This document shows positions 11,301 to 63,537 of a stretch of 64,000 nt of DNA, piece by piece. The notes under the pieces are model-generated. The model was not told the DNA's origin and did not search any database. It saw only the letters and a list, made by a program, of their open reading frames with translations. This DNA is from Mytilus edulis (lineage: Eukaryota). Made by a program: the position numbers and the translations under genes. The stretch's first letter is position 1. The number at the start of each line of letters is the position of its first letter. The stretch is taken from the NCBI RefSeq assembly GCF_963676685.1, contig NC_092345.1, positions 57,536,001-57,600,000 of the forward strand. The letters run 5' to 3'.

Positions 11301-14300
11301 GGTATGTCTATAACATCATATCTGCAACCAGTTACAACAGGAATTCAGTAATGCCTTAGTGCATATGCTATCCTGTCATCCAGATCTGTTATATGTCCTT
11401 AGATACATCATAACTTGAGTTCAAAACATGTTTGAGTCTTTAACTGACCTTGATCAAACTTTCTATTGTTTTGACTCTTGACATTGAATCTCTAGATCAG
11501 TGTTGAGGGTAAAAATTGTAACATTTAACAGATAATCAAAGCTAAAAAAAAGAAATACATAAAAAGTACAAAACAAATTACAGTGCAATGAGCACTTCTG
11601 CAGATTGTTGAAGACCTTTTAGTCAGTATCTAATTGAAAAACCCGTATTACAGTGTTGTTCCTTGGCTGCATTGCTGTTTGCAAGTATTTCAGGAACTTG
11701 TCTCATATTCAACTTATAGTATAATACCTTTCATTCAACAGATTCAAACTTAAATTTGTTATGGTGAATTGTCCAATATGTGCAAATGATAATACTCGCC
11801 TTACATTAATGTAAGAAGCCAGTCATATAAATAAGATCATTTATACTAAAAGGAATACTTCGTTCAGATATACGAACTATATTTGCAGTTTTAAAATTTG
11901 TTTCAATAAATTTTATGATTGGTTTATTTGGTTCACAATTTGATGTTTTAAAGTTAATTTAAAAAGACACTTCATCATTTTCTTGGTTAAATATTTGTAC
12001 TTTTATTTTGTTATTACATGTAGAATGATATATACCATCAGGTAAAATGTCCAATTGATTTGTTTGACAACTTAACATGACTGATATAATTTAAGTTCTA
12101 TTTTCCTTAGTAGGTTCTAGTCAGCAGTGGTTTCATTTGTTGTGGTCTATTTTGTTACTGAAAATTTTCTGAAAAATTAATTACTGTTCAGCTAACTTGA
12201 ACTAGCATAGTGTAGATTAATATTGCATGAGACGGAAAACAGAAGAACTCGTTAAGCAGTAAGGGGTACATCTTTGAAATCCTAACATTAGTTACGGGAG
12301 ACTGTTTGCTAATGATACAAGAATTCATGCATCTTTAATCAATGCATTCCTGTGTAGGACATAGACAGATTTTTTATGCTGCACTTAACACTTTAAACAA
12401 AAATTTCCTTTGATACGAACATTTGACATATTGTGACATAGATATCCTATTAGTTTTGATCTTTCTAATTACTGAATGTTTTTGTAGAAGATGTTTATGT
12501 TGAGTTATAAGGTACTTAACAGCTACCAGTATTTAATGAAATATGTAAATTTTAGAATAATTTAACCATGAAAAAATCTTTCATATTATTTTTACTTTTA
12601 ATGTTACATAACAAGGAATTAATATACTTAAAACAGCCTCTATTAATATATTGTTTGATATATTTTTAATCAAATTTATTTGTATATTACCAAAAAACCA
12701 TATTTAAAATGGTGGGATAAATGATAATTTGAAAGTATAGCTAGCAACTAAATAACACTATCAATAAACATACAAAGCTGTAGCCTACCTTTAACATTAA
12801 AATTACTTTATTTTGATCTAATGAAGAGTTTTTTACTAGATGAACTGGAGAACCGAATTGTCTTGTTGGGTATTGGTGAATTTCTAACTTTGGTACTCCC
12901 TCTTACTTAACCTTAACAGCAATAGTTCTTGTCTGTTGAGTTATGTCATGTCAAATGTTGAATGTATATAACTATTTAAATCAATGAAAGATAGAATTGT
13001 CAAACCTGCTATAAGGTCTTCTCTCTACTCAGTTGGCCTTATTCCTGCCTACTTTAGAAATGCCTTAGGATTTTCAACCTAAATTCAACAAATATCTTAA
13101 TTATAAGCTTGAGGTCAGTTTTGTCTCATCTGATAAATTAAGTGACCTGTAGGAACATTGAAAGATTACAATATTTTTATTTTTTTTCTCAGAAATAAGT
13201 GGTTGACATCAAGTTGGAGTAAGTGTCTCTCTGTAAATGGAGGGTTACAGTGTACAACAGGGATGCAGCACAGAAAAGCTATATGTGTGGAGGAAAATGG
13301 TAAAAATAATAGAAATATTGAGGACACATGTCCTATAAACTCTTTGAAAAGGGAAAGAAATGTGATTGGCATTTCTGTTTGATACTATTAAACCTTATTA
13401 TTCAAATTAAGGAGAAGGTATTACATGAGGTATTATTTGGCCAATGAAATACCAAAAGTAAGGTAAATTCTTCAATGATTGGCATATTTGTGTTACAGTT
13501 AAACATACATGTATAAGGTTTTTAAAATCTGGACACGGAAGTAAATGTTTGTTGTAAAGTCACTGTGAAGCCATAACTTGTGGCCTATTATCTTGTTGTA
13601 AAATGTTGTTTTTGGATAGGGAGTTAGCTCAAATCTAAGATCTTAAAACTAGGATTTTTTGCAGTTTAGCATTTAAACAGTTCTACAGTAGTCCTCTATT
13701 GGAACTGTGTCAAAAATCATATACTAAATATATACCATGACAATATTGGTATCTGGTACATAACCTTGACCCAGTAACTATACAATAAACAATGTGTTAA
13801 AGAAGATCCACAAACAAATCAGTTAATTTTACTGCAAGTTCAGTTCTTCATAGCATGGCCATTAATTATTCTAAACTGTCCCTGATCAAGGATAAATTTG
13901 AGGAATTTGAAGCTGCTAATTATGTTTGCCTGAAGAAAGGGGGTGTTGTATCAAGTACACATTTTGTTCTGTGTTATTGCAGGTTTATAGATCTAAGTGT
14001 TTTGCAGATAATTGCCCATCATTTACAAGTATTTCCATATGAATCTTTGATAATTCCTAAACCTTATTTCTCTAGGGCTTTTTTTAGGTATTGCTCATCT
14101 GATTAATGCTTTGCTACAATTCATTTATAACATATGAACTGCAGGGCTACATAGATATCATTGAACCCTGGAATTACCAATTTAAATTGATTCTTTTTTA
14201 TGGATCTGTCCTTGGATATCACCTGCTTCCTTCCTTCTAAATCTTCCAATAATTAAGAAATAATTCATGGGGGCTTGAATATATCGTTATTTTACCACGG

Positions 14301-17300
14301 GTTGGCCCTTTATGACAAATATTTTACCCTGAGCGATAGCGAGGGCTAAAATATCGGCATAAAGGGACAACCCGTGGTAAAATTTAAATATATTCAAGCC
14401 CCCATGAATTATTTCGATTCTGATAAGACAAATATAGCAATTGTTTTGGTTCAAAGTGCACTAGATGGAGGCAAATATTTGCCGTTCCCATAAATTAACC
14501 CATTTTAAGATTGGCGGTAAAGAACGGAGCAAACAGATTTAGTGACATGCTCAAACTATTTACAATAATATATTTAGATAGATTTGGATGAATTTTAATG
14601 ATAATTTACTTATATATCTTCTATGTATATAAAAAAGGGCTTATACCACATTTTAGTATTGTTTGTTTACGTTTCATTCTGGTGATGATTTTCGGTATCA
14701 GAAGCGTGTATTTTCCCGAAAAATGCTTAAACTATTACGTTATCATTCTATGACGTCGTGTACTCCATCCATAAACAATCATATGACGTGGAAGTACAAT
14801 CAGAACAGCCCAACCAATATATTCATATTTTACCACGGGTGTGTACTCAAAGCGTTTGAAGGACGTCATGTTAGAATTAAGAAATAATTCATGGGGGCTT
14901 GAATATATCGTGATTTTACCACGGGTTGGCCCTTTATGACAAATATTTTACCCCTGAGCGATAGCGAGAGGTAAAATATCGGCATAAAGGGACAACCCGT
15001 GGTAAAATCTAGATATATTCAAGCCCCCATGAATTATTTCGATTCTGATAGGACACATACGGCAATTCTTTTGGATCGAAGCACTCTAGGTGTAGGCAAA
15101 TATTTGCCGTTCCCATAAATAAACGCACTAATAAACTAGTGTAAAAGAACGGAGCAAACTGCATTATTGACATGTTTAAACTATTTAAAATAATGTATTT
15201 AGACAGTTTTGGATCAATTTGAATGATAATTTATTTATATGTCTTATATGATGTACAATAAAGGGCTTTTGCCACATTTTAGCATCATTTGTGTATGTTT
15301 CCTTGTGATGATTTTCGGATTCACAAGCGTGTATTTTCCCGTAAAATGCTTACATTCTAACGTCATTGTTCTATGACGTCGGGTATCTCATTCATAAAAA
15401 AGCATATGACGTGGGAGTACAATCGGAACAGCACTGGCAATATATTCATATTTTACCACGGGCGTGTACTCAAAGCGTTTGAAGGACGTCATGTTAGAAT
15501 AAAATATTTGTCGTCACAACAAAGGCAATGTTAAGAAAGCTAAGGATTAGGAATGTGACCTTTTATGTCGATATCAATTTTTGGTATATTCCTCTCCTAT
15601 GTTATCAGCAGGTTCTAAGAGAGCGTTATTTATGTTTTATTTTTTAAACTTTTAAAATATATAAAAAAGAAGATGTGGTATAATTGCCAATGAGACAACT
15701 CTCCACAAGAGACCAAAATGACACAGAAATTAACAACTATAGGTCACTGTACGGCCTTCAACAATGAAGTAAGACTGTTTTGACATATACATTTTTATGT
15801 GGATATTATGAGTTCATGAAAGAAATTATTGAAGTTTTTGATAGCCAGAATTTTGTGGTACATGTATTAAATTTATTTTTGAAAAATTAGCCAAGAGTTG
15901 AAAAAGCTTATATGTTCTTTTTATTAATCTTATTATTTTAACGTTATTTTTTATCAAATTTATTTTGTTGTTATTAAAAGAAGTTTTTATGAGTTTGTAA
16001 TGGAAAGGATAAAATTTGCCGCAAAGTACACATAGCTCCATTGCAGTTAATGAAATGCAGCCCCTATTTTAATATATAAATGTATAAATAAAGAAATCCA
16101 TTACTGTTTAATTGTATATTGTATTATAGAGAGTGGTGACCAGAAACCAGTTGATGATTCTTTGTGTACCAGTCCTCGTCCAACCATATCACAGTTGTGT
16201 TCAGCAGACTGTGACTGGGATTGTACAGTGTCATTATGGTCACAGTGGAGTGACTGTACTGTGACTGAATGTGAAGCATATGCAAGGAAGAGAAGGAACA
16301 ATCAGAAAACAGGTGTGTTTTTCATGTGTCAGATATGAACTGAAGTGTGCAGAGTTTGTTGAAGCTACTGGAAATTAAAACTGACTAAGGTAGCAAATAC
16401 TTATAATAGAGAATCTCCATAAGGCCAAAATATTCAAGTCAATCTTCGAATAATATTACAAAAAGAACATTACATTTACAAGTTACTTTATAAGGAATGT
16501 GATTTTTATAGGAACAAAAAGAAAGATGAATGTTTGCAGTCAGAGATTTTTCATGGCGGTATAACTTTCTCACATAAGTCGATTTTGTTGTGTTTTCCAT
16601 GTAGTACTTTCCTATCAATATTGCATTCAATATTTTTGACAGTTTCACTATATAAAGCGTCTTATTACATCATACTAATTTGCAAAAGGTGAAATGATTG
16701 AATAAGAGAAAATTACAACAAGCCAAAAAACTGTGCAAGAAGTAATTGGATTACTTCAGAAATAAATCTTGTTTTTGTACAGACCGGAATCTCTCATAAT
16801 TATGATGAAGAAGGTTAGGTTTGTAATTTTACAAAATTGCACTGTGACCCAGTGGACAAGGTCAGACAGATATATTGAATAAGATAATAATTCCATAGTA
16901 ATCTTTAATCTAATGAGACTTCTGTCTGCCACATGTGTCATGGAAATTATCCAAGATGATAATTGGGATGGTCCGCTTAGTTGTGAATTAATTTGCCTAA
17001 TCATGAAAGTACCAGTAGCAAAAGTGTCGCCAATCATTACATTAGAAATGAAAATATGATTTTTTTCCTTTGGAGGATGGGGTCGAAGGGGTCCTGATCC
17101 GGTAATCCTTAAAAACATGAAATCCAGAGGTCCCAAATTTAAAGAAATTTAAATCCCGACATCCCGAAATTCGAAAAAAGAATTCCTGGATCCGAAAGGA
17201 TCAATGTCGAAATCCCGAGCTTAAAACCCCACGATCCCGGATTCCAAATCATTGTTTAAAATGAAAGTAGGTCAAATATTGTGTTTCTTCAATAGTTTTG

Positions 17301-20300
17301 GCAAAGCTAAAATTATCAATGAAGTTTTGGCAAAACTCAAATTATCAATGTAGTTTACTCAAGCACATTTTAAGGTTGGATAGTCTTTACACCACTGCCT
17401 GTTTTACTCCACTCTTTTCATGATTACAGAACAACATACCGGTATATAGCTATATTGATATGTACACATATTTATAATTCAAATTTAATGTCATATGTTC
17501 TTGTTCAACACACAGAATGCATATAAACTTCTGTTAAATTGCTGATATTTATAATAACTGACTTATTTTTCACTTTCCATTGCATGTTAACATTGGTTTT
17601 TATTGCTTTCGTACAATGTAAGAAAATTTAAATCTCAAAAATGTCTTGTTTCTGTTTTGTTAATGGAATTCATTCTGAACTATGATACATCAAGGAAAAA
17701 TAAAGTTATGAAATCTCTGGTGGCCTTGAAATAAATATGTATATACTGCAGCTGTGCTATTTGAGCAGTCAAATTGCATTGACCGTATATTCATATGTGA
17801 TATACAGTCACTGACCGTATATCACCTTGTTTATGACGTTGACAATGTGTTTCCGTAGAGTTTTATTTATGAAGTCAATAAAACATACAGGTTCGCGGAA
17901 ATTTATCGTCGTCCGCTTCAAATTAAGAAATGATGTTTTTACCCAAAATACTTCATTTAGAACAGTTTTAAGAGTTGTAGTATATAAAGAATAACCGTAC
18001 ATTGTCTCGAAATATCAATGTTATTTGTACTCGGCTCGAAACAGGTAGAAATGCTCGGCATAGCCTTGCTTTCTACCTGTTTCTAAGCCTTGTACAAATA
18101 ACATTGATATTTCAAGACAATGTATGGTTATTCTATATTTATATAGCAGAGCATATGTATTGTATTAGAGAATCTAAGTACGAAATTGAATGCAACTAAG
18201 CTCTATTATCTGCTATGATATGGGTTGTTAAATTATATAATGATGAGAAAATTACAGACAATTTTATGATATTAGTAATGAAGGGACACTTTAGTCAATG
18301 AGAAGGCTTAAAATAAATAAATTGGTCTGACCCACTTGTAACTGTAATTGATGACAAAAAATACAAGTATGCTTCAATAGGTAGCATCTGATTAGGTATG
18401 TACCAAACTACCAATATAAATTTATTGTAGCACAGTTTGATGAGGTACTGAAATAAGAAATACAATTAGAAAACTAAGATTATTTAACTGTTTTCTGTGA
18501 CCCTTTGTTTTTGTTTCTCCTGTGACATATTTGTCACTAAATAAGACAAATAGTTACTTATCTAGAGGCAGCTTCTACACCATTTGCTCTTTGTCTATAG
18601 CATAATATTTCATCATTTTGAAGATAGTTATCAAGCCGAAGCCCGCCTCCGGGTGCAAGATTGTTTTGCTGTGACCCAATGGTGGCCTTGCATTGTTTTT
18701 CTGCTGTTTGGTTGGGTTGTTGGCTCTTTGACACATTCCCCATTTTGATCTGCTATTTTGTAACACCTTTACCTAGCTAGATGAAAATTGAAGTATTGAA
18801 ATATGTAAAAGTCAAAGTAGACTAAGGTAATACGTTAATAAGACTGCAAGCCAGTGACACCACTGACCAAAAGAAACCATTTTCATACTAGAGAATTATG
18901 TCTGATATTTTTTTATTTTGAATTTCATATGAAATTTTTTTGTGTATGGGAAGGTTGGAAAATTATTATGATAAATAAAATTAGCAAGGAATGTTCTTCA
19001 AATCCATTTTGTGTTGAAAAGAATTGAATTATATGGGATTTCAGAATTATATTTAAGCAACCATATAATTTTCCCTTAGCAGTATAAATATTAAGCTACA
19101 AATAATAATTTGTTTCATGTTTTGAAATGCATGTCGGTCTGACATGGCAATAATACTATATAATTATAATAGGTCTAAAGAAAGCTTAGTCAATTACAAA
19201 TATGACATACAAACAAACCAGATTCAATTATATTTCCTATTAACTTAGAGCCTTAGGATTCCCAGCAGAATAATTAGCAGAATATTTCAGGATTTATAAA
19301 TAATTGACTTATATCTTCCTTGTGTGCTATTTATGATGTTTAATATTTATATCCTTATTATTTATGTCTATTGTACAGCAGCCTGAGCGCCGTGGCAAAT
19401 GTACTTTACTGGATTATTGCTTCTTTTGTGTTTACATTTTTTAATAGGTTCTAATCCTTTCGATTTAAGTTAAACCTCAATTAACTTACAAAGTAACATG
19501 TTTCTATAATAACATTATAAATCTCAGTATTTGTAATAACAGGGCAGCGATTTAGAACAAGAGAGGTACTAACACGGCCAGGAACAAATGGAGAACAATG
19601 TCCCCACCTTAGTGAAACCCAAAACTGTGATCCAGAACCTTGCTATTTTTGGAACACATCATCTGGTCCCTGCAGTTTGTCCAAGTTTAGATATGGTGAA
19701 AGTGAAACTTGTGGTGTTGGTATTAAACAGAGAACCGCAACATGTGTTGATAAGAAAGGGGTAGGTAGTACACACATCTGAGCATAACAGTTGTTTGGTT
19801 GATGTTTCATTGAAGTTGAAGTAAAACTAAAGTTTTGTTGTTTGTAATTTACATTAGGAAAGGTTTTCCATTCTACTTTTACAAAATGTTTAAACATCAG
19901 TTAAATTTTTTTTTTTTTTTTTTTTTTTATCTTATTTGATAATACAGTTAAATCCCCTAAATTTTCTGTAAAGCTTCCTGAAATAGGGCATGCTTTTGAT
20001 GGAGCTTTTAAGGTTTGCAAGAAAAGGGACCCAATGGGATTGTGTTCTCTTCTGCCATGCGAGATATCTGCATCCTGATTCTATTCAAATAGAGTCATCA
20101 TTAGATAAACTTATGGTGACAATGTGACATTGGATTTGTTATTTAGGGTTAAAGCTGCTAAAACTCCTTAAATGTTCCTGAAATAGGGCATGCTTATTAT
20201 TACAACCCCTCAACACACACTCTGTTTATATTTAAGAATGATTTGATATATGGTCTGGAACTTTTCAATGGTGAATTGTTACATAAAAATTTAAAATTTC

Positions 20301-29813: not shown

Positions 29814-32800
29814 AGACTGTAGTCATTGGATACTGTAAATCATTCAGGTAGTCTTGACCTATTTATTTGTACAAAAAAAAAAAAAAAAAAAAAAAAAAAC
29901 CCAGCCAGTAGTCATTGGATACTGTAGATCATTTAGGTAGTCTTGACTCTTGACCTATTCATTTGTATTAAAAAAAAAACCAGTCAGTTGTCATCTTCAC
30001 TTCACACACTCATCTACAAATATCAATTATATACTTACGAGACATGTTGCAATGTTCAACTTATTACGGTATGTGGAAATCAAGACTTGCATGAAAAATA
30101 TCCCAATATTAGAGGCAATGGCGTCATTTTTCCTCAGAGCTTTCAGCTCTTTGATTAATTTTTACCCTTGAATGAATATATATCTATTCTTAGTCAAAGA
30201 TTTTGGTATCTTATAAAATGTCAGAATATTAATTTTTTTAATATTAGATAATTTATTGGGTCAAATGTATTTCTGATTTTTTTTTATGATTAAAGGTTAT
30301 TCCTGTTATCAATTATTATGTTGTTCTTTTAAAAGGTGGTCAAGGGGTACCAGATCAATGCCATAACAACAATTTGTATCCAACTTACCAAAAACGACCT
30401 TGTCAACTATGTGAGTCATTAAAACCTACATCAATGGGTGAATGGTCAGACTGTATCCTAGAACCAGTCAGACATGACTATATAACCAATCAACCAGAAC
30501 TGACTAGCAGTAGAGGAAAGAGGACTCGTAACACAACCTCACTTGATATGGGATACATTTGTGGAACAGGAAAAAGAATTAAAGTAGTGGCCTGTAGTAA
30601 CCAAGGATTAGGGATAGAGTCAGCAGACAAATGTAATGGAGCAGGTAACTGTCTCTTATATTTCTATCAATACTTGTAAGCTTAGCTGTACGGGCTTTCT
30701 TTGTGTTACCACAGTTAAATTTTAGGAAAATGATATAGAAAATTAATAGATTTACGTTGACTGAAGTCTAAAGCTGCAACCATCATATATGTTGAATGAA
30801 GAACACGATACAAAAGTCCTATTTTACCTAACCCCTTGAAAATACAACTGCTATAAGATTGAAGATTGTGCTTAAATTTAACTCTACCTTTCTTACAGGT
30901 TATGAAGAAGAGGTATGTTTAATACCATGTCCAGTAGATTGTGAGATGTCTGATTGGACGACTTGGAGCGAATGTCCTGCTAAATGTGGTGCTGGTGTAC
31001 AAACAAGATATCGTAGTATCCGTAGACTTCCATCAGCAGGAGGCAGACAATGTCCATCACTTGGTGCTTCAAGCAAGGTTACTCTTTGTTTGTGTTTGTT
31101 TCATCTGCTCCAATTGTGTTTATTAAAAAATAAAGATACATAATTGCTATAGGCTACACTCAGATGAAAAGTTTTATTAACAACTTTAATCATCTTCTTT
31201 TGCAGTTTTCAGATTTATAGGAACTCTTCAAAGTCTTGTAATGTTGAGTTTTATTAAATACTTAATAGAGAGTCAAAAAACAAAAAAAATATTTATGTAC
31301 AAATTTCGTTCTGTATCAGTCAAGTATAAATACTAGCTTTATCCTTTCAAGGAACATACTATTTTTTTATTTTTATTTTAGGAAGTACAAACAAGGCTTT
31401 GTCATCCTGAGTGTGTACGATATGTATGGAAAACAAAAGCTTGGGGTACTTGTATTCCTCATAATCAACAGATCTGTGGTAATGGAACTCAGACAAGACA
31501 TGTTAGGTAGGTATTAAAATAGTTTACCACAATCCTTTCTTATGTTATTCAATACACTGTTTATTTCATGTGCTTGATAACCTTTTTATTCTGGTGATTA
31601 TAACAAGTTCAGGAAAATCTCAACATGCCTTACATTTTAAGCATTCTGACTTGCCATTGATCAAGACTTCTTAATGATAGAATAGAAAGACTGGACATCA
31701 CTTTTAAGTTCTACTTCTGTACAATGTACTTTATGTTATGCCATCATGTATTTAATTTCCGATAATAAATTCTTTTCATTTCTTTAGGAAATTAATATGC
31801 ATTTAAGTATGAATAATCAACTTGGTCATTATGGTCAAGGTGCTTTTGATTAATTGAGAATTCTTACTCTGGGTCCATGAATGCAAGTTCTGACCAAAAG
31901 GAAAGAAGCTGTTCATCAGTCAATTGAATGCATTTATCTCTGAATTTATTTTTATACGACTGAAAAATTGAAAAATTTTTGGTCATATATTGGTATCACG
32001 TTGGCGTCAGCGTCGTCGTCGTCCGAATACTTTTGGTTTTCGCACTTTAACTTTTGTTTAAGTGAATAGAAATCTATGAAATTTAAACAATAGGTTTATG
32101 ACCACAAAAGGAAGGTTGGGATTGATTTTGGAAGTTTTGGTCCCAACAGTTTAGGAATTAGGGGCCATAAAGGGCCCAAATAAGCATTTTCTTGGTTTTC
32201 GCACTATTACTTTAGTTTAAGTAAATAGAAATCTATGAAATTTTGACACAAGGTTTATGACCACAAAAGGAAGGTTGGGATTGATTTTGGGAGTTTTGAT
32301 TCCAACTGTTTAGGAATTAGGGGCCAAAAAAGGGCCAAATAAGCATTATTCTTGGTTTTCGCACAATAACTTTAGTATAAGTAAATAAAAATCAGTGAAA
32401 TTTAAATACAAGGTTTATGAACACAAAAGGAAGGTTGGTATTGATTTTGGGAGTTAAGATCCCAACAGTTTAGGAATTAGGGGCCAAAAAGGGACCCAAA
32501 TAAGCATTTTTCTTAGTTTTCGCACCATAACTTTAGTATAATTAAATAGAAATCTATGAAATTTAAACACAAGGTTTATGACCATAAAAGGAAGTTTGGG
32601 ATTGATTTTGGGAGTTTTGGTCCCTACAGTTTAGGAATAAGGGCCCAAAGGGTCCAAAATTAAACTTTGTTTGATTTCATCAAAAAATTAATAATTGAGG
32701 TTCTTTGATATATGCTGAATCTAAGTGTGTATGTAGATTCTTAATTTTTTGGTCCCGTCTTCAAATTGGTCTACATTAAGGTCCAAAGGGTCCAAAATTA

Positions 32801-35800
32801 AACTTAGTTTGATTTTAACAAAAATTGAATCATTGGGGTTCTTTGATATGCTGAATCTAAAAATGTACTTAGATTTTTTATTATTGGCCCAGTTTTCAAG
32901 TTGGTTCAAATTGGGGTCCAAAATTAATCTTTGTTTGATTTCATCAAAAATTGAATAATTGGTGTTCTTTGATATGCCAAATCTAACTGTGTATGTAGAT
33001 TCTAAATTTTTGGTCCCGTTTTCAAATTGGTCTACATTAAAGTCCAAAGGGTCCAAAATTAAACTAAGATTGATTTTAACAAAAATTGAATTTTTGGGCT
33101 TCTTTGATATGCTGAATCTAAACATGTACTTAGATTTTTGATAATGGGCCCAGTTTTCAAGTTGGTCCAAATCAGGATCCAAAATTATTATATTAAGTAT
33201 TGTGCAAGAAATTTTCAATTACACAGTATTGAGCAATAGCAAGAAATCATCAATTGCACAGTATTGTACAATAGTAAGAAATTTTCGATTGCACAGTATT
33301 GTGCAATAGCAAGAAATATTCAATTGCACAGTATTGTGCAATAGCAAGTATTTTCAATTGCACGGTATTGCGCAATAGCAAGAAATATTTAATTGCACAA
33401 TATTGTGCAATAGCAATAAATTTTCAATTGGAGTTATCTTTCTTTGTCCAGAATAGTAGTTGAATCAACTTAAATCATTGTTTTATACAATATACAATGT
33501 ATTCACTTTTACTACCAACGGATAAATTAAAACTGTCTTTACCATTCAGTGATAACAAGCACTTTTTTACATTTTAATATTTTATGAATTTAAAAGAGTA
33601 GTTATTGTTGCAAACTCCATTAGAAATTTGAATTGAGATCCTTTTTGGAATAAGGGCAAGGGGGATGTGAAAAAAAAATTTGGGGGAGGGGGGGTGTTTT
33701 CAATTTTTCTCATTTCAGATTTCATAAATAAAAAGAAAATTTCTTAAACATTTTTTTGAGAGGATTAATATTCAACAGCATAGTGAATTGCTCAAAGGCA
33801 AAAAACGAATTTTAAGTTTATTAGACCACATTCATTCTGTGTCAGAAACCTATGCTGTGTCAACTATTTAATCACAATCCAAATTTAGAGCTGAATCCAG
33901 CTTGAATGTTGTGTCCATACTTGCCCCAACCGTTCAGGGTTCAACCTCTGCGGTCGTATAAAGCTGCACCCTGCAGAGCATCTGGTTCAATTTTGCAAAT
34001 GCTGCATTGAAATGAAACAATACATTTTTGTAAATTTTGACTATGCATTAAATCTAAGAAAGCAATTTGAAAGTAGTCTTTTGAAATGGATTTCTGTTGA
34101 TGATAATTATCTTAGTGATGTTTTCAACCTGTAAATCAAATTAAATGTATTAAAGAAAAAGTCAGAACACTAAATCTTGTCATTGAACTTTAAAAGGAAA
34201 CAATTGTTTTTTCATGTCAGAGACTAATCAAGTTTTTGAATTATGCAAACATATTTAAATGTTTCACTTTTGTGATTGGCAATGGAAAAAAAATATATCA
34301 GAAGTAAAATGAAATGGATGGCTGGGTAACTTGAAAATGCACAATTTTTTGTATTTTTTGTTTGTTGGGTATTTTTTTGTTGTTGTTGTTGTTGGGGGGG
34401 GGGGGGGGGGGGGGATAGGGTCATCGGTTTTTATTTTGATTTGGGTTATTATGAGCTGGTGATGGAAAATGATGTATACTTGTTTCAGCAGTGTCCAATA
34501 ATGATTCGAAAACCTAAATTTACAAAGTATTATAAATTTTATGTGATTTATATAAAACTTTATTCCTTTATGACCATTAGATGTTATGCTGTGAATAGAC
34601 ATGGATTTACAACAAGTGCAGCCTCTGATGATGTGTGTGTAAATCAACGTCCTCCAAAAATGCAGCATTGTTATTTATATTGTTTGTCAGATTGTGTGGT
34701 CAGTGTTTGGACAGCATGGACTTCATGTAGCAAGGTAATCTTATTTTTTTTCTAAGGTTTAAACTGTTTGGTTCATTGATGAGAAAGTTTGACCCATCAC
34801 TTACTGTACATTGTGCAAGAAAGAAGATAGTTTTTAAATCATTGATCATACAGTTATTGGTTTGGTAGGAACTGGCTTTAATACAAATTGATTATAAAGT
34901 CCATCAATGTTTTGAAACTTTTGCATCAGAGTCATATTGTTTCTGGAAAATATCAATGTTTTTCAACTGCATCATTTGTATCTTTATGAGACATCTGATG
35001 TTTGAGAAAAATGAATAATAGAAGTATATCATTCCTTCATCAAACCCTCATTAGAACAAGAATATATGATGACAGAAATTACAAGTAATAGACATCGCAA
35101 ATGTCCTTGTAAAATATTTCTTGTGAAGAAACATCAGAAAAAAATAATTAGTATTTAGAAATGTACAGTATTAAGGCTTATCATATGAGTGTCATGTAAA
35201 ATTTTTTATGTTGTAAAAGATTATATTTGGTACAAGAATATGCCTTCCTGGTGACACCTTATTGTGAAGACTAAATTAGCTTTTATCTTTATTTTATAGC
35301 CCTGTAATCATAATGATAGACAAGTGAGGACAAGAGAAGTTTTACGTTACCTGAATTACAACAACTGTCCGGAGGTTCGTGAAACAAAACCCTGCATCAA
35401 AAATGACAATTGTATTGAGTACTATTGGGAATGGTCATCCTGGACGACTTGTTTAATAAACAATGGTATGGACAACTGTGGAGTAGGACATAAAGAAAGA
35501 TATTTAATCTGCAAGAACCACTTTGGCCACACTGTGGATAGTGAATTCTGTGAAGTGGTAAGTGTATAGTTGACAACAGTAACTGCATCAAATAGTTTTC
35601 TCAATTGTTTTATATTTTTCATGTCACAGCCTTTTATTACCGACTATACAGTATTGGTTATATCTATTGTTGACAATATGGTTGCATAAAATTGCTTTAA
35701 CATCCACTTAAATAATAATTGAAGATTGTTATACCCACATTAAGAAAAAATAACACACATTTTTTATGGTATTTTGTCTCAGCTTTATATAGTGATAGAA

Positions 35801-55047: not shown

Positions 55048-56088
55048 ATTATATGTCCCATCTAGGGGCAGTATGGTTTTTCGGTCTGTGTGTCCGGTCG
55101 TTGGTCCGTTCGTTTGATCGTCTGTCCCACTTCAGGTTAAAGTTTTTGGTCAAGCTAGTGTTTGATCAAATTGAAGTCCAATCAACTTGAAACTTAATAA
55201 AATTGAGAATGGAAATGGGGAATGTGCCAAAGAGACAACAACCCGACCATAGAGCAGACAACAGCAGAAGGTCACCAACAGGTCTTCAATACAACGAGAA
55301 ATTCTCGCACCCGGAGGCGTCCTTCAGCTGGCCCCTAAACAAATATATACTGGTTCAGTGATAATGAACACCATACTAAACTCCAAATTGTACACAAGAA
55401 ACTAAAAGTTAAAATAATACAAGACTAACAAAGGCCAGAGGCTCCTGACTTGGGACAGGCGCAAAAATGCGGCGGGGTTAAACATGTTTGTGAGATCTCA
55501 ACCCTCCCCTATACCTCTAGCCAATGAAAAATAAACGCATAACAATACGTACATTAAAATTCAGTTCAAGAGAAGTCCGAGTCTGATGTCAGAAGATGTA
55601 ACCAAAGAAAATAAACAAAATGACAATAATACATAAATAACACCAGACTACTAGCAGTTAACTGACATGCCAGCTCCGGACCTCAATTAAACTGATTGAA
55701 AAATTATGTCTTCATCATATGAATATCAGGCATAATCCTCCCCGTGAGGGGTTTAGTATCATACCATCATAACATATATGAGAAGAACATAACCCGTGTC
55801 ATGCCAACAAATGGTTTATTAATAATAAATGTGTTTAGTTCCGATGCAAAGACCCTATAAGTGAATCAATATTAACGCCAAAATATGCAATCTTTAATGA
55901 CCTGACAACAGTATCGTAACTATATCCCTTCTTAATAAGTCTATTTAAAGGTTTTGTTAGCTTCTTAGTTTACATGCTCCCCATGTTTTGATCTTTCTAA
56001 TTTTAATCATCCCAATATCATGGTCCACTGAACATAGAAATTGATAGTGCGAGTTGGGCATCCTTGAACTAGTGACATTCTTCTTCTT
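55048..56088 (+). mobile_element. Helentron-like element interrupted by a second insertion
   Basis: 5' gtcc/gttc microsatellite-like tract; 5' half ends gaaactta (55196) and resumes gtttacatg (55968). Confidence 0.6.
55197..55967 (-). mobile_element. Penelope-related 3'-end fragment inserted with a CTTA duplication
   Basis: Shares aggctcctgacttgggacaggc..ggcggggttaaacatgtt..caaccctcccct with the PLE tail at 57800-57885. An inverted partial copy lies at about 18620-18750. Confidence 0.65.
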
Positions 56089-57258
56089 ATACTTAAATAG
56101 ATGGCTTCCAGATAAATTGGGATAACGTTTTTTTTTTAAATTTCAATCAGAGGTAGCAAAACTCATCAATGATCCTCGATTCAGAAGAGCTGGCTTACCT
56201 TAATCAAATACAGAGTTAAAAACCGTTATTTACCGAAAAAATAATGAAGTTGATCCAAATACGACAAAGGCAATCTATATATGCGGTAGAAAAACCTTAG
56301 TGATATGAATGTTTGAACATTTGGCATCAACCAAGTGGTTATTGACACTCGGCAAAGGTACCAGGTCCCCAATTACTGGACATCACAAAAGTACCCGTAA
56401 AATTTTGACGTAATAGAAAATATCTGACGCCACAATGGATAAGTGATATTTGTATGACGTCAAATGTCCACACTGGACAGATTTCCAAATAGCGATTAGC
56501 TAGGTGTAATTAAAAGATGTACAATCTTTACGATTAGCATTAAACAAAAGTTTTGATTGTGTACGCTTTACACGTACCCATACTAAATTTTTGAGTTGAC
56601 CCATCGTCTCATTAAATGGAACTTTTTCTGTAAAGTGGTACTTGTTCATTCCTTATTTTATTGTATGCTAAATCATTTGTGAAAACCACTTTGATTATAT
56701 CAACAAAATCATCAACGGCTGGAATTGTTTTATGCACCACAAAATTCCAATGGTTATAAATGTGCACCCTCCTTGAAGATTTTTGTATTCATGTGAAGCA
56801 GAATTCAATTCTCAAAGACAATTAGAACAAAATTCTTGCAAAGTTCTTTGATTTCCGTTTCTGATATATTGATCATGTCCTGTCACTCAATTACCCATAT
56901 TTCAGTGCTTGAATCTCGTAACTAGCAAATTTATGATAAAGGATACTTTGGAAATAAGAAGGTTCTTATTTTGAACTTCCTTGATAACGATATAGATTTA
57001 GGAACAAGAATCCATTACAAACGTAATTATTTCAACTTCCCAATTGACAGCACATTTTCCCAAGCAGTAACCTACAGTTTGCCCAATCTTATGGTGTTCA
57101 CATGTTTCACCAAATACGCTACGCTTGTGCATCTTCACCTTGAACTGACTTCATAAACAAAGATGAACTGCTTACACAAGAATTAAACCAAGTAATATGA
57201 GGACGAACGACTGAAATGGACACTATTAAATGGTCAAATCAGAATTTGTTGACCAATA

Positions 57259-57519
57259 GTTATCAAAGGTACCAGGATTATAATTTAATACGCCAGACGC
57301 GCGTTTCGTTTACATAAGACTCATCAGTGACGCTCAGATCAAAATAGTTGTAAAGCCAAACGAGTACAAAGTTGAAGAGCATTTAGGATCCAAAATTCTA
57401 AAATGTTTTGCAAAAAAAACGGCAATGGTAATCTATTCCTGGGTGCGGACTACTGGGCTGGTAATACCTTCGGGGACGAATAGTCCACCAGCAGTGGCAT
57501 CGACCCAGTTGTGTAAATA
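57259..57519 (-). mobile_element. 261-bp non-coding retrozyme-like insert flanked by an AATA duplication
   Basis: AATA at 57255-57258 and 57516-57519. Removing the insert restores GAC CAA TAC GAT GTA (DQYDV) of the host RT remnant. Contains a hammerhead motif. Confidence 0.75.
57290..57333 (-). ncRNA. Minimal type I hammerhead ribozyme
   Basis: Minus strand GCGUCA-CUGAUGA-GUCUUAUGUAAAC-GAAA-CGCGCG-UC/UGGCGU: intact core, stem I GCGUCA:UGGCGU, short stem III with palindromic GCGC loop, and one mismatch in stem II. Confidence 0.8.
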
Positions 57520-57542
57520 CGATGTACCTGTAGCAACTCTCT

Positions 57543-59150
57543 ATAAAAAAGAAGATGTGGTATGATTGCCAATGAGACAACTATCCACAAAAGACCAAAA
57601 TGACACAGACATTAACAACTATAGGTCACCGTACGGCCTTCAACAATGAGCAAAGCCCATACCGCATAGTCAGCTATATGAGGCCCCGATAATACAATGT
57701 AAAACAATTCAAACGACAAAACTAACAGCCTTATTTATGCAAAAAAATGAACGAAAAACAAATATGTAACACATAAACAAACGACAACCACTGAATATAC
57801 AGGCTCCTGTTTTGGGACAGGCACATACATAAATAATGTGGCGGGGTTAAACATGTTAGCGGGATCCCAACCCTCCCCCTAACCTGGGACAGTGGTATAA
57901 CAGTACAACATAAAAACGAACTATAAAAATCAGTTGAAAAAGGCTTAACTCATCAGATGGACAAAAATATAAGTGGACGTGGCCGGGTACTTATACATCC
58001 CGACACAAAAAGACACAATGAACAGATCTGAGAGTACTCGCAGTTATCTGACAGCTAGTTCAAAGCCACTAACAACTAATAAAAAAATCATGCATCTAAG
58101 ACTAAACTATCAATCCGTACAACATCCAATGGATTTAGTGTAAAGACATCATAAACAGCCAGAGAAAAAACATGACCTTGTGCAATGCCAAGTTACAGGT
58201 ATCGACAGATTGTAGATCCATGAATATGTATATATATAACATACTAGTAAAATTTAGTTAGCTTTTAATCTACTGATAACAAAATCAATATTTATTCCAA
58301 TAAAAACAATATTCAATGATCTTATTACGGTGTTGAATAGGTAACCTTTTAGAATAAGTTTTTTTAAAGGAGCGACAAGTTTACATGGATCATTTCTAAA
58401 TTTCCGGGTACGGTTAACAACATTTCCGTAAAAATGAGGATGTGCTATCCCGTTTGAAATAAGTTTTCTACAGGTACATCCAAACTTCAAAACCAAATCT
58501 TTATATCTATGGAAAAATTTAGTAAAGGTTTTCAGTAATTTATGGTAACGATATCCCTGGTTTAATAATTTACCAAATATACATAGGTTGCGATCGTTAA
58601 AATCAAAAACGTCACAACAGACACGGGCATAGCGAACAAGTTGTGAAATATAAACACCGTAAGATGGTACCAAAGGAACATCACCATCTAAAAATGGAAA
58701 ATTAACAATAGGGAACGAAAAATCGTCTCTTTTGTCGTAAATTTTAGTGTGGAGTTTCCCATTTAAAACCGAAATATCTAAATCCAGGAAAGGACAGTTA
58801 TTACCGAATAAATTTGATTTATTTAAAGTAAGTTCCTTGGGGTAAATTTCAGCAGTATATTGAGAAAATTCTTGATTATTTAACGAAAAAATATCATCAA
58901 GATAACGCTAAGTGTTGTTGAATTTATCAATTAAATGCAATTTCGACGGGTCTTTACTGAGTTTAGTCATAAACTGTGATTCGTAACAGTACAAAAACAA
59001 GTCTACTATTAAAGGGGCACAATTAGTGCCCATGGGGATATCTACAACCTGTTGATAAACTTTGTTGCCGAAACGTACATAAATATTATCAAGAAGAAAA
59101 TTAACAGCTTCAATCATCTCATCACACCTCCAGTAAGTATATCTGCCGAC
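57543..59150 (-). mobile_element. Penelope-like retroelement copy (RT remnant plus about 710-nt 3' region)
   Basis: RT remnant followed by a non-coding tail. Its terminus (aaaagaagatgtggtatgattgccaatgagacaact on +) recurs as solo fragments near 1560, 15661 and 25222. Confidence 0.8.
58254..59150 (-). pseudogene. 5'-truncated Penelope-like reverse transcriptase (RT at the ORF C-terminus, Naiad-like), one in-frame stop
   Basis: ORFs 58908-59117 and 58254-58673 share a frame: IPMGTNCAPLIVDLFL..NNT*RYLDD..FLDLDI..KIYDKRDDFSFPIVNFPFL..SYGVYISQLVRYAR. TAG at 58908-58910. No GIY-YIG follows the RT. Confidence 0.88.
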
Positions 59151-61663
59151 TTATTTTGCAATCTATCTTGGAATACCAGAATCGCCTGAACGGGGATTCA
59201 CATGGTGGTTTTTACATGCATTTTCGGACATGTTTACCTAATCGACAAACCAGGTGTTCCCCATTGTTCGTTTGTTACCTTGTGTAACTAGTGTAAATTG
59301 TAGGGATCTCAAACGTTTTTTCTCCAATGCTATTGCACGAATAAAAGAACTTAGTTTGTATGTCTTCTAACATTTATTAGGAGTTTTTGAATATCCACAT
59401 CTGATAATCAACACCTCTCCTAAGAAAGACGTCTACAGTTAATATGGTTTTAATTGGTGATAAAAACACATATTGTACAATGAATTGGAAAGGGTCTCAT
59501 AGAGCGTTTGGTATACCCCAAAAATATAACTTTGTTTGTTACATTAGGACCCATATGTATGTGACTTCGGTTTTCCAGTACAATAAACGAAAATCCACTC
59601 CTTCATTTGTTATGGATATTCCAAAATAACATAGATCATATTATGGGATTGGTAAACGCCCGTAATATACTGAATTGGGTGTTTCAATAGTATTGTTTCC
59701 GTAATTGCTCTTGATTATTTTAATGGCATAAATATTAAGCATACATTTTGATTGATGATATCGATCTTTATATTAAATTAAATTTTACATTTAAATATTG
59801 AACATAACAAAATAACAAGCTAATATACAGACTAAGTAACAATTATAGGCTTTTAGTGATATTTAAAACAAATTCGATTTACCAGAATAAATGCTTCTAG
59901 AATGTATGCTTAATTTTGATGTTGATTGAATTCTCACGTTTAGAACAATTCGAGCGATGAACACTTTGTTTTTGTAGCTATTGATGTTTGACTGAGTCAT
60001 GGACTAATTTATAGTGAGTTTTCTGTTTATCACCAATGAACAATCAAAACCTATTGAAAACGCGTAAAACAGAAAGGGGGTTGAATAGTTCAGTCCGTGA
60101 TAAATATCAAAACTGCGTCTTGAATATTAACTTGACTGCTAAAATTCTATACAAATATGATTAAGAAAAACTTTTGATCGAATTTAAGATTTCAATGAAC
60201 GTTACATGCGTATATCTGATTAAATTATGTTTAATATCATAAATTACTTGAACACATTGTACTGTATTCCTCCTTACACGAATTTGGGTTTGAAGTTTGG
60301 CAATACTTGTAGATAGTTTTATTAAAACAGGATACACTATCTCATACTACAGAAAGGTTGTTTATGAAGTCCGTACTAGTATACATTTAGAAACGATACA
60401 TGTTAACTCATTTATGATTTGAATAAACCTGTTCTAAATGGATACCAAGTCAATAGTTACTGTAGATAGATCTTTTGAATATTGGTTTTACTCATATTTC
60501 GGTAATGCACGAGTTCATTATTTTCCTCACATTGATAATGACGTCTTTATAATAAATCTGTTGAATGTGTACTGATTAATACTTTAGAATGGGGATTTTT
60601 TTTAATTAACCTCTAGCGGTTTTAAACTGGTTTCCAGTAATTGCAAGTACCCTTGGATCAATATTTTGTGTATTTTGCCTTGTGGATAGTATTTTTGTCA
60701 TTTCATGTTTCAAGCCTTTTCCAACTGATTTTTAAAGTTAATGGCATATGTTGTACCGTTAAACTTTGAGCGCTCATGATCTTTTTTAAGGCCAACAACA
60801 TTATATATATGTCTTTCCTAGGTAGAAGCATGTTATGAAGTGGTTGCTGTCCATCATATTTGTTTTCGTTTATTGTTTATCATTGTTTTATAAGTCGGGC
60901 TGCTTTTTGTTTTGAATTGATTCAAATTTCTTGTCAGTACATTTTATAGCTGACTATACGGTATGGTTGTGCTCATTGACGAAGGCTGTTAGGGGACTTA
61001 TCTATACTTAAAATCACGTTATTTAGATACTTTAGAAAATTATCTCATTCATTCATTCATAGCATTAACGTTCAAAATATGAAAATATTCAGTACATTCA
61101 GTACATTCTGTTTTATATTCATAATTTTTAAACAACGTTATATTCGTTATCCCACATATAAATATATATTAACCGATATCTGTGTTTCCCGTCAATGAAT
61201 GCGCGCAAATGATAAAAAAACATTATGTGCATTAGTAAAAGGGAATAAATCCCGAAACGCCCGCAAACATAATGTGCCCATTCATTCGTTCGAGGTAACG
61301 CACGATAAACATGCATGTGTACGACTTATGGCATTATACAACCTGCGAAGATGTGATTAGAAGGAAGCTGATTATAACAATTATGAAGTCTTTGTCATAT
61401 ATTTGAATTTCGATGTGACATACTATGTTGTACTGAGTTTCATCTCATTACTAATCTAAATGGAATGCATCGCTTTAGATAAAGAAAATATGTGAATTCA
61501 TTTATTTTTAGTGAATAGCAATTTTCGTGGATTGAAGAGAAGATGCATTTTCGTGAACATTTGATTTCAATGTTTTGCAACAATCTGTATGCAAGCCTCC
61601 AGAAAACTTATTTAGAAATAATATTTAAATTCGCCTGTTCGCATGAAATCCACAGCATCATGT

Positions 61664-62845
61664 TTATTTCACAATAACATAAATCAAGTAGGCTATAAGC
61701 AATGCGATGAGAAGTATATATGAAATTATCATAAATAAAATGTCAAGAGTGTTTACAATGTGTTTTACAGTCAATTTCTGTTTCTTTTCCGGGTATTCCT
61801 CCTCCGTATCTACATCTTCACTAGAATAAAATACACAACAACAACATGACACAAATCGTACAAGATACGAATTGATTGACTCTATATTATCTACATTGTA
61901 ATAATATACAGTCATAATAACACCGATAACAATCACACCACTGAGTACCATTATGAGAATCATAACGAAGAGCAAGAGACACATTGGATTTGACGAAGCT
62001 GGGAGAGAGCTTGCAACTATCGTTAGAAATATAGCATATGATAACAAAATTGTCATTCCAAGTGAGACTCGCTCACCAGAGTCAACCGGAAGTAGAAACA
62101 CTAATGGGTTCATTAACGCAAACAAGATAGTAGGAACAATAATAACTACAATATAATAAACCGGTTGTCGTTTAATTGACAGTTCGAAAATAATTTCAGT
62201 GATGACGTCTTTATATCTGATATATTGTCGATTACTTGTTATATCCCAATTAGAATTTTGAGTGAAGTATGTCATTATGGTGGCGTCACCCATTGGTACA
62301 TACATGGTGTCAGTAACCTCTACACCCCACATGGCAAATACGAATTCACATGTTTGAGAATCAAATGGGAATTTCAACATATTCGAAGGACATTTTGCTT
62401 TGAATATTCCCCCAGGTGTCCAACTTACGTTTCCATTGTATTGCAGAATAGCATAGAATTGTGAATCGTCTCCAATAGGTTTTAACTCATCAACACCGTT
62501 TTCTAAATAAACATAAGGTACCCATATATCGTTTGTCGTTATTGTGATGTGTTCTTTATTTCCATATATCTTAGGGTCCCATGTAAGCCTTCTATCATTC
62601 CAGACGAAGTTGATTGCTGCTGTGAGAGAAATCGTCTCCTCCGTCTCATGAAATGAATTCATGACCAGCGGTGCTACCACAAAATTTATCTCAAGCGGCA
62701 GCGACTGATTCCATGCAGGTATTACTTCCTTCTGGTATGAATCTGTTAAGTTGTTATAAAGATTTGCAATATCATGAACAGTTTGACATTCTACGTCCAT
62801 TGAAACGACAATTAGGCACACGACATAAAGGAAAATACAACACAT
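61664..62845 (-). CDS. Intronless nicotinic acetylcholine receptor-like (Cys-loop ligand-gated ion channel) subunit, non-alpha type, 393 aa
   Basis: Signal peptide, WNDRRLTWDP, IWVP, Cys loop CPSNMLKFPFDSQTC (C-x13-C), pre-M1 KRQP, M2 'SGERVSLGMTILLSYAIFL' and four TM segments in one uninterrupted ORF. Confidence 0.95.
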   Translation of the reverse strand: MCCIFLYVVCLIVVSMDVECQTVHDIANLYNNLTDSYQKEVIPAWNQSLPLEINFVVAPLVMNSFHETEETISLTAAINFVWNDRRLTWDPKIYGNKEHITITTNDIWVPYVYLENGVDELKPIGDDSQFYAILQYNGNVSWTPGGIFKAKCPSNMLKFPFDSQTCEFVFAMWGVEVTDTMYVPMGDATIMTYFTQNSNWDITSNRQYIRYKDVITEIIFELSIKRQPVYYIVVIIVPTILFALMNPLVFLLPVDSGERVSLGMTILLSYAIFLTIVASSLPASSNPMCLLLFVMILIMVLSGVIVIGVIMTVYYYNVDNIESINSYLVRFVSCCCCVFYSSEDVDTEEEYPEKKQKLTVKHIVNTLDILFMIISYILLIALLIAYLIYVIVK

Positions 62846-63537
62846 GATGAACGAGATACTTTTGGGTAAAAACGGTAGACTAAAATTGAATTCACAGAAT
62901 AGAAAACTGTTTCCGGTTAACTTCCTTTATATTAGAATGAGTTTTAATAATTCGATCAAAAATAGTGTAGTAATCATCCATTCGTTGGTTAAAATTATGA
63001 TGTAAGATATGATTTTTATTTTTCTGAAATTCCTAGGTTTAATAATCCAGTCAAAATTAGTATAAAAAGTACCGACTCGTTGGTTAAAATTATTATTTAA
63101 TCATATTAGTTTTATTGTTGAGAAGTTCCTAGATCAAATTACAATGTATGAATGGTGAGCGGCCTTCTAAATTCATATTAACAAAACATAATCGTTCTAA
63201 CCCTGTAAATTGAACGCGGTTTGATGAATTACTTGATCTTATTATTGGGTTAAATTGTACTGTGTACCTAAATAGAAGGTTGAGTGAACAAATACAAATG
63301 AAGAGATAAAGTTAGTTATTTGAAAACTAAAAGAAATAGAGCACTTTATTAAATCCACTTTGTTTTGATGTTTTAAGAGAGAATGTGTGTATTTGTTCAC
63401 CTATTCAAACATAAAGGAAAAAATCAACGTTATGGAAAGAGAATAACCCAAAATATTTCTTTTCGTTTGAATTTGGGATTTCTCCTGTTTTAAATATAGT
63501 TGAATATATTTAAAACTGGTTATAGAAGTTGTGAATA

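Follow-up and report, generated by a model that had tools for sequence, protein, structure and literature searches.

Introduction

The closest described system is the retrozyme of the mussel Mytilus galloprovincialis, for which Cervera & de la Peña 2020 (PMC7229834) reported ~5000 hammerheads of type I falling into two similar families, repeats of 350-390 bp, cleavage at ~0.1 per min and abundant circles, together with a construct, DRtz_Mg353, and clones MN642551-MN642576; some of the mussel circles are predicted there to block the ribozyme. In vertebrates, Li, Clavereau & Pollet 2026 (10.64898/2026.07.22.740005) regard the solo monomers found beside arrays as offspring unable to transpose, and propose that retrozymes originate from, and are mobilised by, Penelope-like elements (PLEs). 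PLEs can themselves carry hammerheads, in terminal repeats (pLTRs) with a minimal motif (min-HHR) and a tail (PMC4209133; Anolis Poseidon, PMC11167929). The term 'minimal' is reserved in PMC4209133 for these PLE motifs, which have a bulged base after A9, a helix II of 7-8 bp and a helix I of 4-5 bp, the usual metazoan type I design being termed 'canonical'. A PLE reverse transcriptase (RT) starts at fixed internal sites on uncleaved RNA and nicks at ATT in AT-rich DNA, and the purified Anolis enzyme primes without target homology (PMC11167929). One clade of PLEs, the Naiads (Craig et al. 2021, PMC8557442), is marked by a diagnostic DKA motif upstream of the RT and is described as being without canonical hammerheads.

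We analysed a window of 64,000 nucleotides of Mytilus edulis DNA containing an insert that is, with a probability that we put at about 0.85, a defective solo copy of a Mytilus non-LTR retrozyme, a non-coding retroelement of 353-355 bp whose proposed cycle and integration are set out in the Discussion. The family resembles the M. galloprovincialis retrozyme in host genus, unit length (353-355 bp, compared with 350-390 bp and Mg353) and type I hammerhead, and likewise in its GC content of less than 45%, tandem arrangement, high copy number, two related forms and abundant RNA; unlike that system, the insert is a solo unit, 96 bp shorter and with a broken pair in helix II. Because host, size and ribozyme type agree, the family is very probably the published mussel retrozyme, matched on these properties rather than on sequence: strings of the unit's motifs gave no match in the full texts or in the PMC8557442 supplement, and none is printed in the available text of 10.1101/721605 or PMC7761336. 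The initial annotation assigned the insert to the right class and missed that a retrozyme of this size has been described and tested in this genus (PMC7229834).

Results

A hammerhead ribozyme on the minus strand of the insert

A hammerhead had been annotated at 57290-57333 on the minus strand, and a search with the Rfam Hammerhead_1 model (RF00163), together with the pairing, recovered a type I hammerhead there at 30.6 bits (E = 3.2 × 10−4 in 14 kb, E = 1.4 × 10−3 in the 64-kb window), a score under the gathering score of 34. All five Hammerhead_1 matches in the family loci L001-L004 likewise fall under this threshold (25.3-33.3 bits), intact family copies reaching 33.0-33.3 bits. The features that define RF00163 are present: the core CUGANGA / GAAA / NUH, three helices and an open helix I. 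The helices measure 6 bp (I), 4 bp (II) and 2 bp (III, closed by a palindromic loop). C17 lies at 57296, exactly where the initial annotation had placed the cleavage, and the predicted cut thus falls between 57296 and 57295 on the minus strand. The stem III segment ACGCGCGU is self-complementary on direct reading, again as claimed, making an 8-bp duplex possible in a dimer. Among six copies, picked by a pattern spanning the ribozyme, helix changes comprised no two-sided change, one one-sided change and two breaks in 72 cells. No further known ribozyme in the insert was matched by Rfam.

Type I was thus correctly called, and 'minimal' was not: with 6 bp in helix I, 4 bp in helix II, A9 not followed by a bulge and loop 3 palindromic, the sequence departs from the PLE min-HHR in each respect and places the ribozyme with the canonical metazoan type I.

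The insert as an internally deleted unit

The 261-bp cassette had been taken as the unit itself. Alignment to the unit of L002, a tandem array of the family, together with the joint seen in reads, showed that the whole insertion (57255-57519, minus strand) consists of an internally deleted retrozyme unit at 57255-57515 and a 4-nt overlap, AATA, at 57516-57519. In the global alignment with the 355-bp L002 unit, 231 of 259 aligned bases were identical (89%, a divergence of ~11%), with a 2-bp insertion and a 96-bp deletion whose junction lies at 57442/57443; the true unit is therefore 353-355 bp long and the insert lacks 96 bp of it. The insert has no tandem partner, being one unit only, and no close second copy in the window. 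As in vertebrates, the family has dispersed monomers beside arrays; in contrast to the vertebrate solo retrozymes, described from a sample that included no mollusc, the insert at 261/355 bp (74%) falls below the length rule of at least 80% of the consensus. Since it also lacks the two consecutive hammerhead units by which Li et al. 2026 define an active retrozyme, we file it as a defective derivative, neither an active retrozyme nor a full-length monomer.

The insert was described as non-coding, and this held: the longest ATG open reading frames (ORFs) in the insert or the unit encode 29-34 aa, and a circular reading of the unit gives none longer than 34 aa either. GC content is 38% in the unit and 41% in the insert copy, compared with ~32% in the window. 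We rejected a 93-codon stop-free frame at 57284-57565 as a gene, as it has no Pfam match and crosses three unrelated elements, and likewise rejected an unusually stable fold of the whole-unit circle (z of −1.0 and −1.3 for L002, ~0 for the insert copy).

The window also contains an old, degraded copy of the same family at 56134-56322, oriented as the insert, with an 11-bp gap through its hammerhead and a score of 109; none of 270 control stretches scored above 59. Separately, self-comparison of the window revealed tandem arrays at 1-1052 (~38 and 76 bp), 14251-15503 (~624 bp, with inverted parts) and 32033-33430 (complex, 130-320 bp), in which a hammerhead search gave no match.

Family copies, abundance and transcription

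Copies of the family were collected at four loci in metagenome contigs (L001-L004), with one more true copy, L005, from genome contigs; pattern scans of viral contigs yielded no family copy, and two scans of genome contigs were likewise empty. L006 and L008 were rejected as chance 20-25-bp matches with no further likeness, and both are left out of all counts together with L007, which repeats L005. L002 holds ~2.4 head-to-tail units with a period of 353-355 bp and two hammerhead matches, at 294-337 and, with a core change, at 649-692, and no ORF lies between its units. Several properties that characterise retrozymes are found in this family: tandem repetition of hammerhead-bearing units in the range of 150-450 bp (L002), absence of coding capacity, GC content below 45-50%, and high copy number combined with transcription. 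Two related forms exist, in that L001 departs from L002-L005 around the ribozyme: at 1358-1546 it shows a divergent second form with the same hammerhead core and other flanks, which may correspond to the second of the mussel families in PMC7229834. The mussel-type fragment in L005 (1 to ~780) sits at the AT-rich end of a contig from a cyanobacterial bin, where it adjoins bacterial sequence rich in GC, and this contig is probably chimeric or contaminated with stray animal DNA.

Abundance and junctions were evaluated in four of the 24 runs listed, two of DNA contigs (X1, X4) and two of RNA reads (X21, X24), the RNA runs being sampled at 6% (X21) and 18% (X24) and bearing organism code H, as against code A for the best DNA source. 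On a 601-bp stretch we counted 24,463 (X1) and 31,562 (X4) contig records, those of the neighbouring Naiad repeat among them. Contig depth, which measures abundance and not copy number, reached ~10^4-10^6 over most of the insert compared with <10 on the left flank, 2-4 orders above the flanks, and dropped to only a few hundred at 57415-57435, the most diverged part of the insert copy. RNA depth at the ribozyme was ~3,200 reads in X21 and ~2,000 in X24. The head-to-tail joint from 57515 to 57255 ('goes back 261') occurred in 15 contigs of X1 and 16 of X4, and in 629 reads of X21 (~142 starts) and 142 reads of X24, RNA evidence that fits circles or multimers equally. First mates at the joint were distributed 519 plus to 110 minus in X21 and symmetrically in X24; the X21 bias suggests RNA of the hammerhead strand, as in most stranded libraries. 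Ends of RNA reads did not accumulate at the cut site or elsewhere. The family is an abundant, tandem-repeated and transcribed mussel repeat, and its high copy number, tandem arrays and junction-spanning RNA reads bear out the annotation of the insert as a single retrozyme monomer, here a solo copy of the metazoan non-LTR kind.

The ends of the copy

The AATA on either side of the insert had been interpreted as a target-site duplication. Both junctions between units of L002 read GTGTA-AATA-GTTATC, and four letters at the joint from 57515 to 57255 fit either side. As AATA is the element's own junction sequence, duplication and microhomology are indistinguishable here; with the tandem junctions carrying AATA, and the target's reading frame restored only by an empty site AAATA, the interpretation as a duplication was not upheld.

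Past the predicted cut, the copy carries a 3' extension of 37-41 nt (57255-57295, minus strand), the end of which is the family's usual 3' end as judged from dispersed copies and loose contig ends. All four dispersed copies of the L002-L005 form (the insert, L003, L004 and L005; the divergent L001 is excluded from this count) stop within ~5 nt of 57255, and the sequences flanking them are AT-rich and unrelated. Loose contig ends before 57255 numbered 317 in X1 and 281 in X4, with an agreement of 0.4, and part of them may be tandem junctions. A 3' end lying 37-41 nt past the cut implies that the template was not the cleaved linear monomer. The 5' ends vary, falling at about unit position 237 in L002 and ~71 in L005, while the insert spans exactly one turn, a single case that does not establish a mechanistic one-turn end. 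No empty allele of the insertion site was found among 15 of the 279 joints listed.

Fixed 3' ends combined with variable 5' ends resemble the PLE tail and internal initiation of PMC11167929, and the family shares with the hammerhead-bearing PLE pLTRs a hammerhead near the 3' end, a fixed internal 3' end, an AT-rich target, variable 5' truncation and a dimer design. Unlike the pLTRs, the insert has no ORF and its hammerhead combines a 4-bp helix II, without the A9 bulge, with a 6-bp helix I. Moreover, both ends of the insert overlap the target whereas the Anolis enzyme needs no target homology, and such priming argues against a role for microhomology at the 3' end. The passages of PMC7229834 consulted describe neither a fixed 3' end nor junction microhomology nor an opposite-strand motif for the mussel retrozyme.

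The target and its neighbours

The insert lies in an old, frameshifted Penelope-like (Naiad-like) RT remnant on the plus strand, which extends from motif C into the thumb (56865-57254) and was located with tblastn and assigned only by a weak match to an HMM of 119 homologues, at E = 1.2 × 10−6 to 4.1 × 10−6 in a 12-sequence database. A protein search with this degraded remnant gave no match, nor did Pfam on the RT pieces. By its profile score the remnant continues on the right for nine codons (57515-57541, plus strand), until it is cut again by the 3' end of a second, minus-strand element that ends at 57542, with a step in depth at 57541/57542. The right-flank peptide KYDVPVATL scores 9.0 bits, equalled by 22 of 127,946 9-mers of the window and by nine of 682 9-mers starting with AAATA; minus its first two residues, its score is reached by 2.6% of 9-mers. 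An empty site AAATA gives 9.0 bits and an empty site AATA −8.0 bits. On these nine codons, continuity of the reading frame across the insert is only modestly supported, which favours, but does not prove, AAATA as the empty site, further frameshifts lying nearby in the remnant. To this extent the insert does interrupt an RT remnant, as first proposed.

The element to the right (57542-59150, minus strand) is a 5'-truncated, Naiad-type neighbour that is not part of the retrozyme. Its RT (58254-59150), with one stop and then a 3' UTR, is 80% identical to P0003, a protein whose cluster includes M. edulis and M. californianus members, by which a mussel origin of the window is most likely. A young, strongly 5'-truncated Naiad-type copy lies at 55208-55966 (minus strand), its last 43 codons 97.7% identical to P0009. 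Twelve of 162 homologues of the minus-strand RT reach the DKA motif and carry it, the window copies ending before the motif; by these relationships both minus-strand RTs would be classed as Naiad-type. The target remnant and its two neighbours thus have Naiad-like RTs, but the insert is not part of the Naiads. Since Naiads are described as lacking canonical hammerheads, the adjacent RTs do not name the mobiliser, and the initial proposal of mobilisation in trans by PLE RTs like the flanking ones found no support. Landing in a dead RT gene is incidental.

Other features of the window include old Naiad-type fragments at 60235-61001, in opposite orientation to 57542-59150, and short 3'-end fragments at 15660-15767 and 18634-18745. 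A hammerhead half-core, CUGAUGAG, occurs in a Naiad 3' UTR at 57956 (minus strand), with no GAAA within 30 nt; such half-cores in Naiads are mentioned in PMC8557442. An uninterrupted, apparently intronless frame of 420 codons at 61664-62926 (minus strand) has the domains of a Cys-loop ligand-gated ion channel (Pfam ligand-binding domain, E = 8 × 10−37; transmembrane domain, E = 3.5 × 10−12).

Two divergent copies of Naiad type carry SECIS elements in their 3' UTRs, homologously placed at 55716-55780 and 58100-58160 (both minus strand), with Rfam scores of 37.1 bits (gathering score 35) and 20.7 bits. In the sections of PMC8557442 consulted, the only species listed with SECIS Naiads are two clams and two spiders, and that paper was the only work found in a literature search on SECIS Naiads of Mytilus. 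Among 94 homologues without DKA but with YWxPKxHK, 85 begin <50 residues ahead of YWxPKxHK, and those 85 starts fall downstream of the cysteine encoded as UGA in SECIS Naiads. A locus search for a SECIS-bearing Naiad gave no match. These features would fit selenoprotein Naiads in mussels.

Folding and activity of the insert copy

In helix II, a near-private change at 57310 (minus strand) breaks the C10.3-G11.3 pair of the insert copy and leaves one C.A mismatch. The pairing base at this position makes up 421,366 of 424,821 of the depth in X1 (99%) and 1,144,400 of 1,168,337 in X4 (98%), and in RNA 3,114 of 3,192 reads in X21 (98%) and 1,723 of 1,855 in X24 (93%). Fold energies, which are predictions without tertiary contacts or Mg2+, separated the copies. 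For L003, L004 and L002b the dimer-active fold is itself the cofold minimum (−29.5 kcal/mol), and for L002a and L001 it lies ~5 kcal/mol over the minimum, while for the insert copy it reaches −16.7 vs a minimum of −24.5 kcal/mol. As a monomer, the insert's active fold has +0.7 vs −9.0 kcal/mol, and that of L003/L004 −5.7 vs −9.2 kcal/mol. The active form of the insert thus lies 8-10 kcal/mol over the minimum, and in circle folds it costs 13.7 kcal/mol, compared with 7.4 kcal/mol for the L002 units. With the pairing base in most of the family's coverage and the active fold this far up, the helix II mismatch probably weakens the insert ribozyme, as the initial annotation had suspected. Because 96 bp are lost, divergence is ~11%, the helix II pair is gone and there is no tandem partner, the insert copy would most likely be inert.

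A hammerhead-like motif of opposite polarity

The 5' domain of the unit (57448-57512, minus strand) is GC-rich and structured as judged by folding z, which for L002 547-617 is −2.99 on one strand and −3.48 on the other and for the insert copy −1.61, and it contains a segment complementary to the hammerhead core. On the plus strand of the domain, at 57458-57485, lies a hammerhead-like motif of opposite polarity, recognised by its core match in L002 and further decayed in the insert. The family form in L002 reads CUGGUGA-N13-GAAAC-GUC, its 13-nt spacer equal to that of the working ribozyme; three changes separate it from a textbook core with a helix II of 5 bp. Eleven of the 13 core positions agree, a score equalled four times in 2000 when the remainder of the unit was shuffled and once in 2000 for the domain, with a pattern chosen post hoc, after the motif was seen; a local alignment test of the motif was not significant (446/2000). 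Pairing of this segment with the hammerhead as the ground state was rejected, at −68.1 and −63.6 kcal/mol vs minima of −75.8 and −67.9 kcal/mol. The main text of PMC7229834 contains none of the words 'antisense', 'polarity' or 'opposite', and no mussel case of ambisense or both-polarity retrozymes appeared among the literature matches listed. We treat this putative plus-strand motif as a lead and not as a result.

Discussion

We read the insert as one damaged, ordinary copy of an abundant and already described mussel element. Its origin could be accounted for as follows. Tandem arrays would be transcribed mainly on the hammerhead strand, as the strand bias of the reads suggests, and the hammerheads are predicted to cut the multimer, best as a dimer via the 8-bp palindromic helix III. 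A host ligase would then close the monomers into circles, a step shown for the mussel retrozyme (PMC7229834). A borrowed Penelope-like RT/endonuclease, presumed here as the enzyme, would nick AT-rich DNA and begin cDNA synthesis internally, at the fixed end that is observed ~40 nt past the cut. In the insert, exactly one unit would have been copied, with a stop where the junction AAATA met the target AAATA, producing an apparent duplication.

Three other histories have to be weighed against this solo-copy reading. Tandem arrays such as L002 exist and tandem repeats collapse easily, so that the insert might instead be what recombination or assembly left when a longer tandem insertion collapsed to a single unit, its matching ends being a by-product; one X1 contig (57100-57281, no differences) backs the left junction, and no piece covering the whole stretch is among those listed. 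Such a collapse would nonetheless have kept the original 5' end, which must then still fall on a unit boundary as those of L002 (~237) and L005 (~71) do not, and a copy with a deletion and private changes is unlike the consensus of many units, making this history improbable in our judgement. The position of the hammerhead near the 3' end, the extension of 37-41 nt and the fixed 3' and variable 5' ends are all PLE traits, and among the 57 retrozyme families of Xenopus, 24 have matches to known transposons, 21 of 22 such being PLEs, at their termini (10.64898/2026.07.22.740005). These points would suit a detached pLTR of an autonomous, hammerhead-bearing mussel PLE, left by a 5'-truncated insertion. 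That origin is nevertheless hard to reconcile with the ~2.4 head-to-tail units of L002 and no intervening ORF, with the 629 X21 reads that pass from the end of one unit to the start of the next, vs a depth of ~936 in the last bin, and with a ribozyme that is canonical and not a PLE min-HHR; we consider it quite improbable for the insert, and pLTR ancestry of the family is possible.

We give still less credence to an insert that remains active, its deletion leaving a compact, circle-forming variant of 261 nt. In favour of this, the insert keeps every core nucleotide, helix I and the palindrome, and PMC7229834 reports self-cleavage at ~0.1 per min for a genomic repeat cloned from mussel, along with cloned circles of differing size. 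Against these stand a single hammerhead, which frees no monomer, an active fold 13.7 kcal/mol over the circle minimum vs 7.4 for the L002 units, an RNA depth of 0 (at most 0.1) on the left flank, and 965 X21 reads (organism code H, 6% of the run) that follow the L002 type from 57415 onwards and reach the first letters of the segment deleted here.

Within the preferred reading, a bolder version of the solo copy's history is conceivable, and we hold it to be unlikely: the mussel retrozyme would derive from a viroid-like circle with hammerheads of both polarities, the plus-strand motif surviving as a switch that pairs with the core, and the insert would record PLE-type internal priming on a circle, ended after one turn by junction microhomology. 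If this were true, solo copies would be a genomic read-out of how an animal retrozyme integrates.

The locus itself carries little weight, one mussel genome holding ~5000 such hammerheads (PMC7229834) and this copy being damaged; the SECIS elements in two mussel Naiad-type families may outweigh the retrozyme copy in value. What the insert offers is a data point on the enzyme that mobilises animal retrozymes and on the template that it copies. Exact one-turn copies at AAATA targets, were they common, would be genomic evidence for circle-templated integration.
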